Part shown: piece by piece, positions 3,029-54,070 of the stretch
Layout: every line of letters starts with the position of its first letter
How positions within the stretch are numbered: the first letter of the stretch is position 1
DNA from: Escherichia coli
Lineage (GTDB): Bacteria > Pseudomonadota > Gammaproteobacteria > Enterobacterales > Enterobacteriaceae
Length of the DNA: 64,000 nucleotides
NCBI RefSeq assembly: GCF_003018255.1
Contig: NZ_CP027440.1
Direction: 5' to 3' (one strand)
Translations under genes and position numbers: made by a program
The notes under the pieces: generated by a model
Seen by the model: only the letters and a program-made list of their open reading frames with translations
Database searches by the model: none
Told to the model about the DNA's origin: nothing

Positions 3029-4433
<1,405 letters not shown>

Positions 4434-4503: not shown

Positions 4504-7500
4504 TTACTGGAAGCAGGTCACCAGACCCGGTTTATTTTTTATTAGCGTGATACTACAATCCTGCGCTCCAGTACCTTCGTCCATCCCACACTGTTGAGAG
4601 GACAAATAAGGAAAACTGGGTGAAGACGGCCATCCCAGTGAATTAAAAACAGTATGCAACAACTCTAATTCATTGTATGTCGGTGCATTTTCTATGCTGC
4701 CACACTGCCTTGCGATATCCCATTTACTGGCATCAATGATATGTGCAGAAGCCCAGTTTTCGTAGTTAATAATCGGTGAGGATACGGGATTAGCCCCGGA
4801 CGGCAATTCCGTCGTTAACAACGGTCGATGTAGCGATTTACTAGTCACCACTACCGTGTCTGCCATATGTCCCCAAAAGTGCGCCGATGAAACATTTGGG
4901 CTGGTTGGCACCGTAAAAATAGCATCCAGCGTGTCTGTCGCGGAAGCGTAATTAGCCAGAGTAACCGTCAGTGGCATTTTATAACCAGGGGTATTATCCT
5001 GGCGGAGCGTAAAACTTGCCGTCCCATCCGCGCCTGTCATGCCACTAATGGTATTACCGCTTTCACTCAGCGTAACAGCCGAACCTGATAACGGCTGAAC
5101 GACGAGATCGTCCATCGCCACTACATTGCCATACAACGTTGCCCCAGCGTTACGCGGCGATGCCTCACCACGTTTCAAAGTAAATTCAACATTCGGCACC
5201 GTATTCCCGGCGCTGTCTTTCACCGTCACGGTTACGGACATGGCTTCGCCTTTTTTCACTTTCGCCGCCTGAGTGGCTGCATCAAACGCTGTTGAGGTAA
5301 GTGTGACGCTGGAAACGGTTGAACGCGCGTTAGCCAGGCAAGGCTGAAATGATTTTGTTGAACCCGTATACAGCGTGCCATTTCTCAAATCAACCGACTG
5401 GTCTTTACCATCGGCGGATTTATCCTCTGCCCACCAGGTGTAATACGCAGGCCAGCCAGTTTCAGTGACAAACGTGTTATTCGGATAACGCGCAGACAAC
5501 GAACTTAAATCATTGAATAGTGGCTGCCTTGCTACTTCACAAGGGCTCACACTCGCATCTGATTTCTGTGTTGGGGTAAAGTACGGCCAGTCTTCATTAT
5601 TGTTATTGATCTTGCCGACGCCAGAAGTCGATGTCAGTTCACTCCACAATTTCGGGCGTTCAAATACCGCACCATTCACTGCCGTCAAGGTTGCTGGCAT
5701 ATGCCCCCAGTAGTTAGCCTTCGCAGAATCCGGGCTGGTCACTACCGTGAATATCAGGTCCTGATTAGCCGTAACCTGCGGATTTCGCGCCAATGAAGCT
5801 GTAAACGGCGTTACCAGACCGACGGTGTTATTTTGGGTAACGTTGAACGTTATCGTGCCATCACTGCCGGTGAAGCCGCTCCATGCCGACGTATTCTGGT
5901 TGAAGGAGATACGCGCCGATGTTGGGGTGACTTCATCTAAAATGAGATCATCTACGGTATTGGAGGATACAGAGATCCCTGAACGGCTTTTCGCCTGCAC
6001 GCGCTTGAGCGTAACACCTTCGCCGCCAACAGGATTACCATTGGCATCTTTGATCGTCACCACGATGGGAAGCATCTCACCTTTTTTCACAGATGACGTG
6101 GGGGTACCACCATTGCTGGCAGTTCGGCCCTCATCATAGGCAGTCGATGACAGCGTAAGGCTTGCTGGTGCCGAATGTGGCTGCGTCAGACAGAGCATTA
6201 AAGCGTATCCATTAATAGTCGTCGTCGATTGTCCCGTTTTCAAATTAATGACGCCGTAATACCACGTCAACGCGTCAGTGGTGCTCATTTCATAAGTCCA
6301 CCAATTTCCACTTCCGGCAGTTATAGGCAACCCCAAATCTGTCAGTATTGTCCCGCCTGGATGATCATTATATAGCCCCTGTAACTCATTGAGACGCGGC
6401 TGATACTCAACCGGGCAATCCGGCGTAACTTTATTGGTATAAAAAAGGTATGACCACGACTCATTATTATTACTTACCGAGGACCCCAAGGTCGCTTCTG
6501 CTGCCAGTAGCGGTCGTTTAAAGGTCACCCCCGCCCTACTGGTAAACGTGTCGGGCATATGACCCCAGTATTTTGCTTTCGGTGAGTTCGGACTGGTTAT
6601 CACAGTGAAAATAACATCCATCGTGGCACTTTTTGTGGTGTCGCGCATCAATGTTGCAGTGAGCGGAGTTGCCAGCCCATAAGTCTCGTTTTGCGTCACA
6701 TCAAAAGTCGCTTTACCATCACTTCCTGTCGTCAGAAGTGCCTGTGCCCCATTATTATAGAGTGACATGTTTACTCCGGCAGGGGTGACCGGCACGATAG
6801 TAAGATCATCATACGTAGAATCTAGCCTGTTTTTTGCACGATCCAACGCAGTCCCGCGTATGAGATTAAAGTTTGCGCCTGGCAACAGATTTCCTCCGCT
6901 ATCCCGCACAATCACCGTCATCCGGATCGCCGTACCTTTCGCCGCCGTTGCACTAGGGCGACCATCGTTGCTGGCCGTTTTCTCCGCATCCAGTGCCGTG
7001 GAGGTCATCTCTATAGAAGCTGCCACTGCATGAGGGTTTACCAGACAGGACACAAATGCCACGGTGTTTGATAATGCCCTGGAGCTTGATCCATTCGATA
7101 AATTAATAGACTGATCGTACCAGACGTTCGCGTAGGCAATTTTATCGTAAGCCCACCAGGTGTTAGTCAGCGGAAGGCCTAAATCGGTCCCTATCGCACC
7201 ATTAGGATGTTCACTGTATAACTCTTGAAATTCGCTTAATAACGGTTGATAAGGTTCGCCGCAGTCTGATTTGCTGACATCATTTTTTGCTGCCGTATTC
7301 AAAGAAAGCCATGATTCATTATTAGCCATGGTTGACTGCCCCGCTGGATGCTCGGCAGTAAGCAATGGCCGCTTAAAGGCAATTCCCGACCGGGTAGTAA
7401 ACGTTTCAGGCATATGCCCCCAGTAACTTGCCAGTGGCGTATCCGGGCTGGTTATGACGGTAAACATGACCGGTAATTTGTTGGATTCTATCGTCAGCTG

Positions 7501-21067: not shown

Positions 21068-21177
21068 GTTTATTCTCTTTCTGAATATAAAAATGAACCC
21101 TCAACGCTTCCCTCAATGTTTCGGGAGCCATGCGGGTTCAATCATACACGGGAAGCGAGGCGCTTCCCATCACGTTA

Positions 21178-22296
21178 TTATTTTTCAACCTGCTGAACGT
21201 CAATTCGACGCGCTTCGTCCAGCTGACTGGCTTTCGCACGAATGCGCGCTTCCAGCTGATCGATCATATCGTTGTTGTCCAGACGGTCTTTGCGCACGCC
21301 ATCTTCATAGAGGCCGCTTTTCTTGTTGCCGCCGGTGACGCCGAGTGTAGAAACCAGCGCCTCACCAGGGCCATTCACCACGCAGCCGATAATCGAAACG
21401 TCCATCGGAGTGATGATATCTTCCAGGCGTTGCTCCAGCGCGTTAACCGTACCGATAACATCAAATTCCTGACGCGAACAGGTCGGGCAGGCGATGAAGT
21501 TGATCCCGCGCGAACGGATACGCAGCGATTTCAAAATATCGAAACCGACTTTGATCTCTTCGACCGGATCGGCCGCCAGCGATACGCGCAGCGTGTCGCC
21601 GATGCCTTCAGACAGCAGCAGACCTAAACCAATAGCGGATTTTACTGCCCCGCTACGCGCACCACCGGCTTCGGTGATCCCCAGATGCAGCGGCTGATCG
21701 ATTTGTTTTGCCAGCAAACGATAAGACTCAACAGCGAGGAAGACGTCAGACGCTTTCACGCTGACTTTGAACTGATCGAAGTTCAGGCGATCGAGATGAT
21801 CAACATGACGCATGGCAGATTCCAGCAACGCCTGCGGCGTCGGTTCGCCATACTTTTCTTGCAGATCTTTTTCCAACGATCCGGCATTAACGCCAATACG
21901 GATCGGAATGTTTTTATCGCGCGCACAGTCAACCACCATGCGAATACGCTCTTCATTACCGATATTGCCAGGGTTAATACGCAGACAATCGACGCCGTAT
22001 TCCGCTACTTTCAGCGCAATGCGATAGTCGAAGTGGATGTCAGCCACCAGCGGCACGTTAACCTGCTGTTTGATGAGTTTGAACGCTTCTGCCGCGTCCA
22101 TCGTCGGTACGGAGACACGGACGATATCAGCGCCAACACGTTCCAGCGCCTTGATTTGATTGACCGTTGCTTCGACGTCTGTCGTACGCGTATTGGTCAT
22201 GGACTGTACGGCGATGGGAGCACCATCGCCAATCGGCACATTCCCAACGTAAATACGTGTTGATTTTCTACGTTGAATTGGAGCCTGGTTATGCAT
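21178..22296 (-). CDS. ispG: 4-hydroxy-3-methylbut-2-enyl diphosphate synthase IspG (372 aa)
   Basis: Starts [36 protein letters not shown]. The [4Fe-4S] cysteines CPTC...C are in the C-terminal domain. Confidence 0.97.
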
Positions 22297-32979: not shown

Positions 32980-33825
32980 ATGTCCACGACATGGTTTGTA
33001 GGAGCCGACTGGCTCGCCGAACATATTGATGACCCGGAAATTCAGATTATCGATGCCCGCATGGCGTCGCCTGGACAGGAAGATCGTAACGTTGCTCAGG
33101 AGTATCTGAATGGACATATTCCCGGCGCAGTGTTTTTTGATATCGAAGCGCTTTCTGATCACACTTCTCCGCTTCCGCACATGCTGCCGCGCCCGGAAAC
33201 GTTCGCCGTGGCGATGTGTGAATTAGGCGTTAACCAGGATAAGCACCTGATTGTCTATGACGAAGGTAATCTTTTCTCAGCCCCACGAGCATGGTGGATG
33301 CTGCGCACCTTTGGTGTAGAGAAAGTGTCGATTCTGGGTGGTGGACTTGCAGGCTGGCAGCGTGATGATCTGCTATTAGAAGAAGGCGCAGTAGAGCTGC
33401 CGGAAGGAGAGTTTAACGCCGCGTTTAATCCTGAAGCCGTGGTGAAAGTAACCGATGTGTTATTGGCAAGCCATGAAAATACGGCGCAAATTATCGATGC
33501 CCGCCCGGCTGCACGTTTTAACGCAGAAGTTGATGAACCTCGCCCAGGTTTACGTCGCGGACATATTCCCGGTGCACTAAATGTTCCGTGGACGGAACTG
33601 GTGCGCGAAGGTGAACTAAAAACGACCGATGAACTGGATGCGATATTTTTTGGTCGCGGCGTAAGTTATGACAAACCTATTATCGTCAGCTGCGGCTCTG
33701 GTGTAACGGCAGCCGTGGTTTTGTTGGCACTCGCGACACTTGATGTGCCAAACGTGAAACTGTACGACGGCGCATGGAGTGAATGGGGCGCACGAGCAGA
33801 TTTACCAGTTGAGCCAGAGAAATAA
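32980..33825 (+). CDS. sseA: 3-mercaptopyruvate sulfurtransferase (281 aa)
   Basis: ORF-track frame trimmed to the ATG at 32980 (MSTTWFVGADWLAEHIDDPEIQIIDARM), which is preceded by TGGAGA. It has tandem rhodanese domains and the active-site CGSGVTA. Confidence 0.95.
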   Translation: MSTTWFVGADWLAEHIDDPEIQIIDARMASPGQEDRNVAQEYLNGHIPGAVFFDIEALSDHTSPLPHMLPRPETFAVAMCELGVNQDKHLIVYDEGNLFSAPRAWWMLRTFGVEKVSILGGGLAGWQRDDLLLEEGAVELPEGEFNAAFNPEAVVKVTDVLLASHENTAQIIDARPAARFNAEVDEPRPGLRRGHIPGALNVPWTELVREGELKTTDELDAIFFGRGVSYDKPIIVSCGSGVTAAVVLLALATLDVPNVKLYDGAWSEWGARADLPVEPEK

Positions 33826-33841
33826 GCTTTTAACAGGCAAT

Positions 33842-33869
33842 AAAAAACCGCCGAATCTGGCGGTTTTTT
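33842..33869. terminator. bidirectional rho-independent terminator (sseA on +, sRNA copy 1 on -)
   Basis: aaaaaa-ccgcc-gaatct-ggcgg-tttttt: a GC stem flanked by an A-run and a T-run. Confidence 0.8.
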
Positions 33870-33941
33870 ATTGCTGGTCTGGTTCGCGGCCTTTCCAGCA
33901 GATTGGCTTGTGTTGCATGAGCAACGCAGGTGCTTCACAGC
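33842..33941 (-). ncRNA. candidate ~100-nt sRNA, copy 1 (RyfB/RyfC/TimR-like paralog with diverged 5' seed)
   Basis: - strand promoter TTGACA (33971-33976), 17 bp, GAGTAT (33948-33953), identical to copy 2. The transcript would end at the 33848-33863 hairpin plus U-run. The 5' end is predicted only from the promoter position. Confidence 0.5.
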
Positions 33942-34163
33942 AAAGCAATACTCGCCAGTAACTCTCTTTTTGTCAAGCGAAAGAGAGTAATCATTGTTTA
34001 TTTAGCGTATTATCGACACCGGCCCTTTCCGCCGTGTTCGGTAATAAAATAACCTAGCTTATTAGTCCGAATTCAGACAAATATAAACAAATCCTGCTCA
34101 AAATTAAAAATACTAACCGGTAAAAGATATTACTTAAACATGTAAATTCACTTTCCTTTAAAA

Positions 34164-34263
34164 AACAAAAAACCGCCAAAATCAGGCGGTTATTTGTTGC
34201 TGGTTTGGTTCGCGGCCTTTCCAGCAGATTGTATTACCGTAGTAATGCAAGCGCGTCTCAGCG
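34164..34263 (-). ncRNA. candidate ~100-nt antitoxin sRNA, copy 2 (RyfB/TimR-like), divergent from ryfA
   Basis: - strand promoter TTGACA (34293-34298), 17 bp, GAGTAT (34270-34275). The terminator is ccgcc-tgatttt-ggcgg followed by TTTTTTGTTTTTT. The predicted 5' end cgctgagacgcgcttgc is perfectly complementary to 34407-34423 in the ryfA 5' UTR. Confidence 0.6.
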
Positions 34264-34486
34264 GACACAATACTCGCCAGTAACTCTCTTTTTGTCAAGT
34301 AAAAGAGAGTTATTATTGTTCTGTTAGTGTATTATCCACTGCGGACCTTTCCGCCGTCTCGCAAGCGGGCGCTGGCTTAAGGAAAGGATGTTCCGCGACC
34401 GTTAGAGCAAGCGCGTCTCAGCGCTTGCTATCGCGGCAATATCGCCAGTGGTGCTGTCGTGATGCGGTCTTCGCATGGACCGCACA

Positions 34487-34612
34487 ATGAAGATACGGTG
34501 CTTTTGTATCGTACTTATTGTTTCTGGTGCGCTGTTAAGCGAGGTAAATAATAACCGGAGTCTCTCCGGCAACAATTTACTGGCGGTTAACAACCTTCAG
34601 AGCAGCAAGTAA
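34487..34612 (+). CDS. 41-aa hydrophobic small protein, TimP-like type I toxin candidate
   Basis: ATG...TAA translates to MKIRCFCIVLIVSGALLSEVNNNRSLSGNNLLAVNNLQSSK. The N-terminal segment is hydrophobic and TM/signal-like. It lies inside ryfA, is below the ORF-track length cut-off, and has no obvious SD, which is common for tightly repressed type I toxins. Confidence 0.55.
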   Translation: MKIRCFCIVLIVSGALLSEVNNNRSLSGNNLLAVNNLQSSK

Positions 34613-34618
34613 GCCCGA

Positions 34619-34645
34619 ATGCCGCCCTTTGGGGCGGCATATTTT
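34619..34645. terminator. rho-independent terminator of ryfA (also abuts the convergent sseB stop)
   Basis: atgccgccc-tttg-gggcggcat followed by ATTTT. Confidence 0.8.
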
Positions 34646-35420
34646 AGATTATCCGGTTCTGTTTAAAGTCACGCAAAAAACCACCCCAGCGACGTTCATA
34701 GAATGGCGCAATATGTTCGGTAATAAAGTGGCTAATTCCTTTTTCCCCTTTTTTCACCTGACAAATATCGATGGGTTCATCGCCAGGTAATGTATCGGTC
34801 GCTACACTTCCCGCCGCCTGAATAATTTCTTCGATATCACCATCGGCTTCAATGCCAATAAGTAAATTAGGCTGTGCCTCTTCGTTCTCTTTAATTGAAC
34901 AAATAAAAGCACGCTTCACCGGCTTAATAGTTTTAAATAAGGTGGTGAGTGAATCAATCATTTGTGCTGGTGGCTCTGCGACTTCCGATAATATCAGCGA
35001 TTCACCGCCTTCCAGTACTTCCTGGCTGCTCAGCGGATTTCCTTCTTCACCAATCAGCAAACTGATTTCACGCGGCATAAATTCTTTACCGGTTGGCAGT
35101 TTGGCATTAAGGAAGAGCGTTTCGCCAAGGGTCATCTCAAACAATGTGCGAACGGGCATTACGACAAATGCCTGTTCGTCTTCAACCGCCTGTTGAAGTG
35201 CTTCTAACGAGGTAAAAAAAGGAATGACGCTGGTGCCGTCTTCTTTTTCCCAGTGCTGTAAATCAAGCGCGCTATCTTCAACCACAGCCTCGCCCTGCGC
35301 CGCCGTACCCGGCACCCAGACGGTGGATTCCAGTAGAGTACGGAAAAAGGCCGGGCGGTGCGCCGGTTCGGTTGCTGCTTTTTCCAGCAGGTCTTCAAGT
35401 TCGTTTTTTGTTTCGGACAT
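34644..35420 (-). CDS. sseB: enhanced serine sensitivity protein SseB (258 aa)
   Basis: ORF-track frame trimmed to the ATG 35418-35420 (MSETKNELEDLLEKAATEPAHRPAFFRTLLES). Confidence 0.93.
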   Translation of the reverse strand: MSETKNELEDLLEKAATEPAHRPAFFRTLLESTVWVPGTAAQGEAVVEDSALDLQHWEKEDGTSVIPFFTSLEALQQAVEDEQAFVVMPVRTLFEMTLGETLFLNAKLPTGKEFMPREISLLIGEEGNPLSSQEVLEGGESLILSEVAEPPAQMIDSLTTLFKTIKPVKRAFICSIKENEEAQPNLLIGIEADGDIEEIIQAAGSVATDTLPGDEPIDICQVKKGEKGISHFITEHIAPFYERRWGGFLRDFKQNRII

Positions 35421-41876: not shown

Positions 41877-41900
41877 TGCTCTATAAACTCCGTACATCAC

Positions 41901-41987
41901 TCAATGCAAGGAACCAGGCTACCGGCTGGATGTACGACCGTGTTTACGGAGTGTTTAGCACTCCGGCCTGATTCTGAATTCTTTTTA
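41901..41987 (-). promoter_or_regulatory. structured iscR-iscS intercistronic region
   Basis: This 87-nt spacer contains, for example, the stem-loop cggagtg-tttag-cactccg (41947-41965). In E. coli this spacer and the iscS start are the established target of RyhB-dependent differential decay of the isc mRNA. I did not map the pairing site. Confidence 0.4.
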
Positions 41988-53938: not shown

Positions 53939-54070
53939 GCCGGATGCGGCGTGAACGCCTTATCCTGCCTACCGTTCCAACACCAATTGTAGGCCTGATA
54001 AGACGCGGCAAGCGTCGCATCAGGCATCGTGCGCCGAGTGCCGGATGCGGTGTGAACGCCTTATCCGGCA
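53939..54070. repeat. BIME with three REP units between yphA and yphB
   Basis: gccggatgcggcgtgaacgccttatcc (53939-), gtaggcctgataagacgcggcaagcgtcgcatcaggc (53989-) and gccggatgcggtgtgaacgccttatccggc (54040-). Confidence 0.85.

Follow-up and report, generated by a model that had tools for sequence, protein, structure and literature searches.

The closest described system is the TimR (STnc2070)/TimP pair of Salmonella and E. coli (timR b4811 and timP b4812 in K-12), in which an antitoxin sRNA and a toxin mRNA are transcribed divergently at the sseA-sseB locus. TimR is an RNA of ~100 nt whose 5' seed recognises stem-loop 2 in the timP leader and which ends in a Rho-independent terminator. Duplicated or decayed loci have also been observed among other type I systems, e.g. 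the zorO-orzO tandem pairs, the Ibs/Sib repeats, and the inactivated hok/sok loci of K-12, and tandem duplication, the discrimination of paralogous toxins through a few nucleotides of the seed, and frequent toxin loss are features of these systems. None of them is related in sequence to timPR, and their sRNAs are overlapping, whereas the timPR sRNA is divergent and trans-acting; therefore, the seed and target of timPR are direct repeats in the DNA and are able to recombine. The Rfam family IS128 (RF00125) was reportedly introduced as a candidate sRNA by Chen et al. in 2002. The overexpression of IS128 in K-12 produced no phenotype (PMC4606813). In Salmonella, the 5' end of TimR pairs with stem-loop 2 of the timP 5'UTR, thereby blocking a pseudoknot needed for translation (PMC7667032, PMC11228461). 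In Shigella dysenteriae, ~100-nt RNAs named RyfB1 and RyfB2 were observed upstream of each of two ryfA siblings (PMC5333039), consistent with the two siblings that the initial annotation mentioned for Shigella. These RyfB1/RyfB2-RyfA1/RyfA2 modules are arranged in tandem, the sRNAs differ in the seed, and the ryfA copies differ in the variable region under the seed.

The DNA analysed in the present study (hereafter, the window) is a 64-kb stretch of an E. coli genome, and the part considered herein was identified through Rfam matches and synteny as the sseA-timP(ryfA)-sseB locus. Positions 33780-34660 (881 bp) are 99.9% identical to strain DETEC-S792, in which timP is annotated. Much of this region is already known: timR is annotated in K-12 (RefSeq), IS128 is an Rfam family, and timPR/RyfA-RyfB have been characterised, and the window is a strain-level variant of this described toxin-antitoxin locus. 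The S. dysenteriae locus keeps both toxin transcripts, whereas the window keeps both sRNAs and one toxin. Herein, we propose that the upstream sRNA gene (copy 1, corresponding to RyfB2) is very likely a complete B-type timR located beside the scar of its own deleted toxin gene, in other words, an orphan antitoxin. Further Rfam matches above the gathering score were observed in the window for the iscRS stability element (41878-41987), sroE (21087-21178), and naRNA4 (53992-54070), which are ordinary content for a chromosomal region.

Two related segments were aligned, copy 1 at 33838-34035 and copy 2 at 34164-34357, with 81% identity over 199 nt using BLAST (E = 3.6e-40) and 86% column identity using MAFFT. 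All of the elements that the initial annotation described for copy 1 were recovered in the places it assigned to them. The identical 30-bp promoter block is real and is in fact a 32-nt run, CAATACTCGCCAGTAACTCTCTTTTTGTCAAG (33946-33977 and 34268-34299), the longest block common to both copies; the 3' half of the sRNA contains another identical stretch, 26 nt long (33880-33905 and 34206-34231). The 5' seeds have diverged as described, with GCUGUGAAGCACCUGCGUUGC in copy 1 (33921-33941, minus strand) and GCUGAGACGCGCUUGC in copy 2. The TATTAT box is present at 34008-34013, and the ryfA-like 5' end behind this box is retained, but its length of ~25 nt requires correction, as 17 nt of the transcript (34019-34035), or 22 nt past the -10 box, remain. 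The 32-nt block contains the predicted promoter of copy 1 (33948-33976, minus strand), which reads as a -35 element TTGACA at 33971-33976, a 17-nt spacer, and a -10 element GAGTAT at 33948-33953. The sRNA promoters of both modules were not called in a scan for consensus promoters, because the -10 element matches the consensus at only 3/6 positions. An inverted repeat, ACTCTCTTT...AAAGAGAGT, covers the sRNA promoter -35 element at 33961-33988 and again in copy 2 at 34279-34314 (listed as 10- and 14-pair hairpins), and in both modules this repeat is located upstream of both divergent transcription starts. As speculation, the inverted repeat could be a putative regulator binding site; it is absent from the promoter region of the C-type module of O157. 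On the other side of the sRNA gene, a predicted hairpin with the composition A6-CCGCC-GAATCT-GGCGG-T6 (T1, 33842-33869) is symmetric in sequence, with runs of A and T at its ends. T1 starts 17 nt past the sseA stop codon (sseA ends at 33825); it is predicted to act as the terminator of copy 1 and, probably, of sseA on the opposite strand. The corresponding T2 hairpin was scored as a terminator on both strands.

Judged from its sequence, copy 1 does not represent a new paralog; it is orthologous to the timR gene annotated in K-12 and to TimR of CFT073. In the RefSeq annotation of K-12 MG1655, timR (b4811) occupies 2653356-2653455 on the minus strand, and the transfer of these coordinates to the window yields exactly 33842-33941 (100 nt, minus strand), 499 bp upstream of the ryfA start; hence, copy 1, and not the ryfA-proximal copy 2, is orthologous to the TimR annotated in K-12. 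The 3' end at 33842 and the length of 100 nt previously predicted for copy 1 coincide precisely with the transferred gene. The two genes share position and length, with 95/100 nt identical (95%), and copy 1 is 99% identical to the sRNA of CFT073. The latter strain has one module only, of the B type, and across the sRNA, the promoter, and the first 17 nt of the timP leader it differs from copy 1 at 1 nt, in the terminator loop. The predicted fold of copy 1 comprises a free 5' seed, SL1, SL2, and the terminator hairpin (-36 kcal/mol, z = -3.7), and copy 2 is predicted to adopt the same four-part architecture, in which SL1 is preserved between the copies through compensatory changes (GUUGC/GCAAC vs AUUAC/GUAAU in the predicted folds). 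Thus, copy 1 resembles TimR/RyfB in its location between sseA and sseB, its divergence from a timP promoter region, its orthology to an annotated or detected TimR, and, in silico, its ~100-nt RNA with a free seed, stem-loops, and an intrinsic terminator, but its seed is not complementary to the timP 5'UTR of its own genome. Rfam contains no TimR family, and a permissive search against this database returned only sub-threshold chance matches (AgrB, RNAI, OrzO-P).

These features also bear on whether copy 1 might be a silent relic of which only T1 is functional, as the terminator of sseA. The symmetry of T1 and its proximity to the sseA stop codon would be explained in this way, and orphan copies have decayed in S. 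flexneri and E. ruysiae, as described below. However, the copy 1 promoter is base-for-base identical to that of CFT073, a strain in which TimR has been reported on Northern blots, as in APEC strain CH138 (PMC13188913), and the sequence of copy 1 in the window has no sign of inactivation. A silent relic is therefore considered unlikely, and copy 1 is probably still transcribed to generate an RNA of ~100 nt ending at the T1 hairpin.

The orphan status of copy 1 depends on the pairing specificity of the seeds. The ryfA/timP mRNA of the window (34341-34645, plus strand; Rfam ryfA, 312.5 bits) contains the timP CDS at 34487-34612 and a type A TimR site at 34398-34423. Copy 2 is a TimR-type sRNA gene of type A at 34167-34262 on the minus strand and is cognate to this timP, with 16 contiguous pairs between its seed and the site at -40.3 kcal/mol; in a scan of the whole window, the best non-self match of copy 2 was likewise the timP 5'UTR (-35.9). 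For copy 1, which is of type B (RyfB2-like), 19 contiguous pairs at -38.8 kcal/mol were obtained with the B-type timP 5'UTR of K-12, compared with 9 contiguous pairs at -26.4 kcal/mol with the A-type timP of the window, the duplex energies being computed for a seed of 26 nt and the initial 145 nt of the timP leader, with target structure and chaperones ignored. Shuffled targets for the B-type sRNA gave -22.2 +/- 2.8 kcal/mol. This seed-based method replaced the folding of the whole sRNA with the ryfA leader, which was dropped because the duplexes obtained were unrealistic end-to-end structures.

In an alignment of the modules of the window, K-12, W, O157, EC488, and TUM13936, three types could be distinguished, in which the seed and its site in the timP 5'UTR change together. 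Type A (plus-strand seed gcaagcgcgtctcagcg, variable region CGCGT) is found in W and in copy 2 and timP of the window, type B (gcaacgcaggtgcttcacagc, variable region TGTTT, as in RyfA2) in copy 1 of the window, K-12 timR, and the timP sites of K-12 and CFT073, and type C (gcaacgcaggcaccccacagtg, variable region CACCC) in O157, the variable regions being those of Fris et al. (PMC5333039). The seed-leader energies were strongly diagonal, ranging from -36 to -40 kcal/mol for cognate combinations and from -22 to -30 kcal/mol for non-cognate combinations. The selectivity of S. dysenteriae RyfB1, which lowers RyfA1 and not RyfA2, although the RyfA siblings are distinguished mainly by 5 nt within the site (PMC5333039), fits an insulation between these specificity types. 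Because the sole timP of the window has a type A site, for which the adjacent copy 2 provides the match, copy 1 is left as an orphan antitoxin in this genome. In this respect, the locus differs from the TimR/TimP pairs described above, as the timP belonging to copy 1 has been deleted and no match between its seed and a target is left in the same genome. We infer from the modelled duplexes that copy 1 has no activity on timP of type A, and the same energies leave room for a weak cross-repression that copy 1 may exert.

An alternative in which copy 1 serves as a second working antitoxin for the timP of the window, providing back-up repression through partial pairing between the B seed and the A site or through pairing elsewhere in the leader, would rest on this residual complementarity (-26.4 kcal/mol, 9 contiguous pairs), on the shared 3' half of both sRNAs, which may bind the same chaperone, and on the conservation of the copy 1 sequence relative to the functional copies in MEW and CFT073. 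Against this, the energy lies within ~1.5 SD of the shuffled targets, the predicted duplex is discontinuous and displaced from the canonical site, and a difference of 5 nt was sufficient to abolish cross-regulation in S. dysenteriae (PMC5333039), whereas types A and B differ more. Such a back-up role appears very improbable.

The region behind copy 1 supports the loss of a toxin gene rather than its ancestral absence. No Rfam ryfA match was obtained in this region, no conserved ORF was observed in the filler or across 33842-34340, and the timP leader is represented only by +1 to +17, in agreement with the initial annotation, which reported that the toxin was missing and that an AT-rich filler of ~130 bp stood in its place. 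The filler (34036-34166) measures 131 nt, with 26.7% GC compared with 52.5% for the window. A complete type I toxin-antitoxin module with an adjacent small hydrophobic ORF was thus not found at copy 1. A 41-aa ORF with a TTG start on the minus strand (34054-34179) was considered as a hidden toxin in the filler and rejected, as it is interrupted or frameshifted in relatives.

Three remnants could be distinguished. First, the -10 box and the timP mRNA from +1 to +17 (34008-34035, plus strand) are the remains of a timP-B promoter and leader; as far as 34035, they share 100% identity with the functional B modules of both MEW and CFT073, and the homology to timP ends there. Second, the 14-mer TGTTCGGTAATAAA (34035-34048), which recurs in the real sseB at 34714-34727 and was recognised through alignments to EC488, TUM13936, and MEW, is the leftover of an sseB 3' fragment; it supplies the first 13-14 nt of the filler and marks the right edge of a 357-bp deletion. 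Third, positions 34049-34166 (~26.5% GC) correspond to the AT-rich spacer that joins the sseB fragment to the following module in the multi-module genomes EC488, TUM13936, MEW, ECNB21-M121, and PE164. The window (33830-34460) is colinear with modules 2-3 of MEW at 94.6% identity with a single gap of 357 bp, and 33880-34035 is 100% identical to MEW. The sequence missing from the window in this gap is timP-B from +18 onwards and 73 nt of the sseB fragment. The colinearity with MEW and the retained sseB 14-mer indicate that the filler is the spacer of a tandem array and that a toxin once followed copy 1. It had been asked whether the filler might be ancestral, with no second toxin ever present; this is excluded, because a full timP follows the B-type sRNA in MEW, and then the sseB fragment, the filler, and the A module. 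The suggestion of an orphan antitoxin left after toxin loss is accordingly supported by the array colinearity, the sseB remnant, and a seed that is non-cognate to the timP of the window.

Positions 34001-34209 (plus strand) form a full-length member of IS128 (258.3 bits against a gathering score of 80, model positions 1-209), which is a candidate for a run-off transcript initiated at the truncated timP-B promoter and ending at T2. On sequence grounds, IS128 is best interpreted as a toxin-deletion scar and not as a dedicated sRNA gene; its components are the promoter and leader of the truncated timP-B, the 14-nt remnant of sseB, the spacer, and T2, which is bidirectional. In the Rfam consensus, the 5' hairpin of IS128 pairs the -10/leader region with the sseB remnant, and since these are its two arms, this hairpin depends on the deletion junction.

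The following history is proposed for the locus. In the ancestor, timR-timP modules would have stood in tandem, with an 87-nt 3' fragment of sseB and then an AT-rich spacer behind each of them. A deletion of 357 bp would then have taken out timP-B, from +18 up to and including its terminator, and 73 nt of the sseB fragment. The sRNA gene and the divergent promoter region would have survived, along with the first 17 nt of the timP leader, the last 14 nt of the sseB fragment, and the spacer. The RNA of copy 1 would still be made from the TTGACA-17-GAGTAT promoter, with no cognate target at the locus. The near-perfect identity of copy 1 to functional copies fits a recent loss of the toxin and equally fits retention for a function.

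Arrays of the type required by this history were observed. The two-module genomes EC488, TUM13936, ECNB21-M121, and PE164 have the order sseA, T1, sRNA, timP, 87-nt sseB 3' fragment, AT-rich spacer, T2, sRNA, timP, and sseB, and strain MEW (extracted locus 81-2003) carries three modules in the order C-B-A. The third module of MEW is a mosaic, with an A seed and an A target combined with a B-like timP promoter. A chimeric 320-nt query for a two-module precursor of the X-A type was uninformative, as it joined non-colinear pieces, and a redesigned query found such genomes. Among 5,426 complete E. coli genomes, the truncated junction was found in 1,799 and the sseB-fragment/spacer junction, indicative of multi-module arrays, in 153. 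The A, B, and C targets were present in 2,982, 1,975, and 526 of these genomes, respectively, the A seed in 4,530, and the B seed in 2,096. The K-12-type chimera, in which an A-type promoter is combined with a B target, accounted for 1,581/5,426 genomes (~29%), and the identity histogram of this query was cleanly bimodal. The counts imply that the arrangement of the window, an orphan B copy with a complete A module, occurs in ~120-220 of the 5,426 genomes (~2-4%).

The opposite mismatch was observed in K-12 MG1655. An unannotated A-type TimR paralog (extracted locus 1182-1277, corresponding to window 34167-34262) lies directly beside ryfA/timP, and the pairing energy of this proximal sRNA with the type B timP site was -29.5 kcal/mol, compared with -38.8 kcal/mol for the distal B copy. 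According to these modelled energies, the mismatched copy in K-12-like genomes is the ortholog of copy 2, and the cognate antitoxin is the distal B copy, ~500 bp away. Orphan and non-cognate TimR arrangements were not described in the literature searched. The terminator flanks track the position in the array and the seeds do not, which suggests that crossovers took place inside the conserved 26-nt block in the 3' half of the sRNA; the combination of T1 with the upstream B copy and of T2 with the downstream A copy requires recombination within this conserved half. In Salmonella enterica subsp. arizonae CCUG 6322T (~1188-1260), the sRNA seed is joined directly to the part of the timP leader that follows the target site (gcaacgcaggcacaccgtagtgcttgctatcacgg), and it looks as if recombination between seed and target has deleted both promoters.

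Orphan copies in two other genomes were also compared. S. flexneri SFBU1023 has the same arrangement as the window. The orphan B copy of this strain (~3206-3240) has a 1-nt deletion in the T1 stem (ggcgg to ggcg), a change that may represent early decay. In E. ruysiae (~5900-6330, reverse-complement), a toxin-less upstream sRNA copy is followed by the AT-rich spacer and then by an A module; 8 nt of SL1 are missing from the upstream copy, and its promoter has diverged. The left junction is different, with no timP leader and no sseB remnant, and the sequence suggests an older or independent toxin loss. The same AT-rich spacer with a different left junction implies that the spacer may predate the E. 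coli arrays.

These orphan copies are relevant to the possibility that copy 1 has been retained for the regulation of other mRNAs in trans or for immunity against incoming B-type timP modules. The promoter, seed, and terminator of copy 1 are intact in sequence, and the shuffling of A, B, and C modules among strains implies that B-type toxins circulate in the species. However, a scan for targets of copy 1 within the 64-kb window revealed nothing above background and hence no candidate target in this window, and the other orphan upstream copies have decayed, in the T1 stem in S. flexneri SFBU1023 and through the loss of SL1 and of the consensus promoter in E. ruysiae, so that strong selection on orphan copies is disfavoured. 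Retention for such functions is quite unlikely, and an orphan antitoxin left after toxin deletion is the preferred reading. A broader proposal, that timPR is a shuffling set of three insulated cassettes in which antitoxin and toxin are often unpaired and in which spare sRNAs, if expressed, provide immunity or other regulation, is put forward only tentatively and is considered rather unlikely.

No new kind of system is revealed in the present study; the results instead explain IS128 as a deletion scar and add the observation that, in E. coli, the specificities of antitoxin and toxin frequently do not match. For annotation, the sRNA gene closest to timP in K-12 has been left without an entry and does not encode the cognate antitoxin. 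Owing to the differing arrangements of the copies, deletions of "timR" or of the region upstream of ryfA may remove different things across E. coli backgrounds. The locus also provides a natural example of the evolution of type I antitoxin specificity through cassettes of covarying seed and target, with toxins lost while antitoxins persist. If timPR is indeed a set of shuffling cassettes and the spare sRNAs are expressed and retained, these RNAs could confer pre-existing immunity to toxin alleles that arrive by recombination or act as regulators of other genes.
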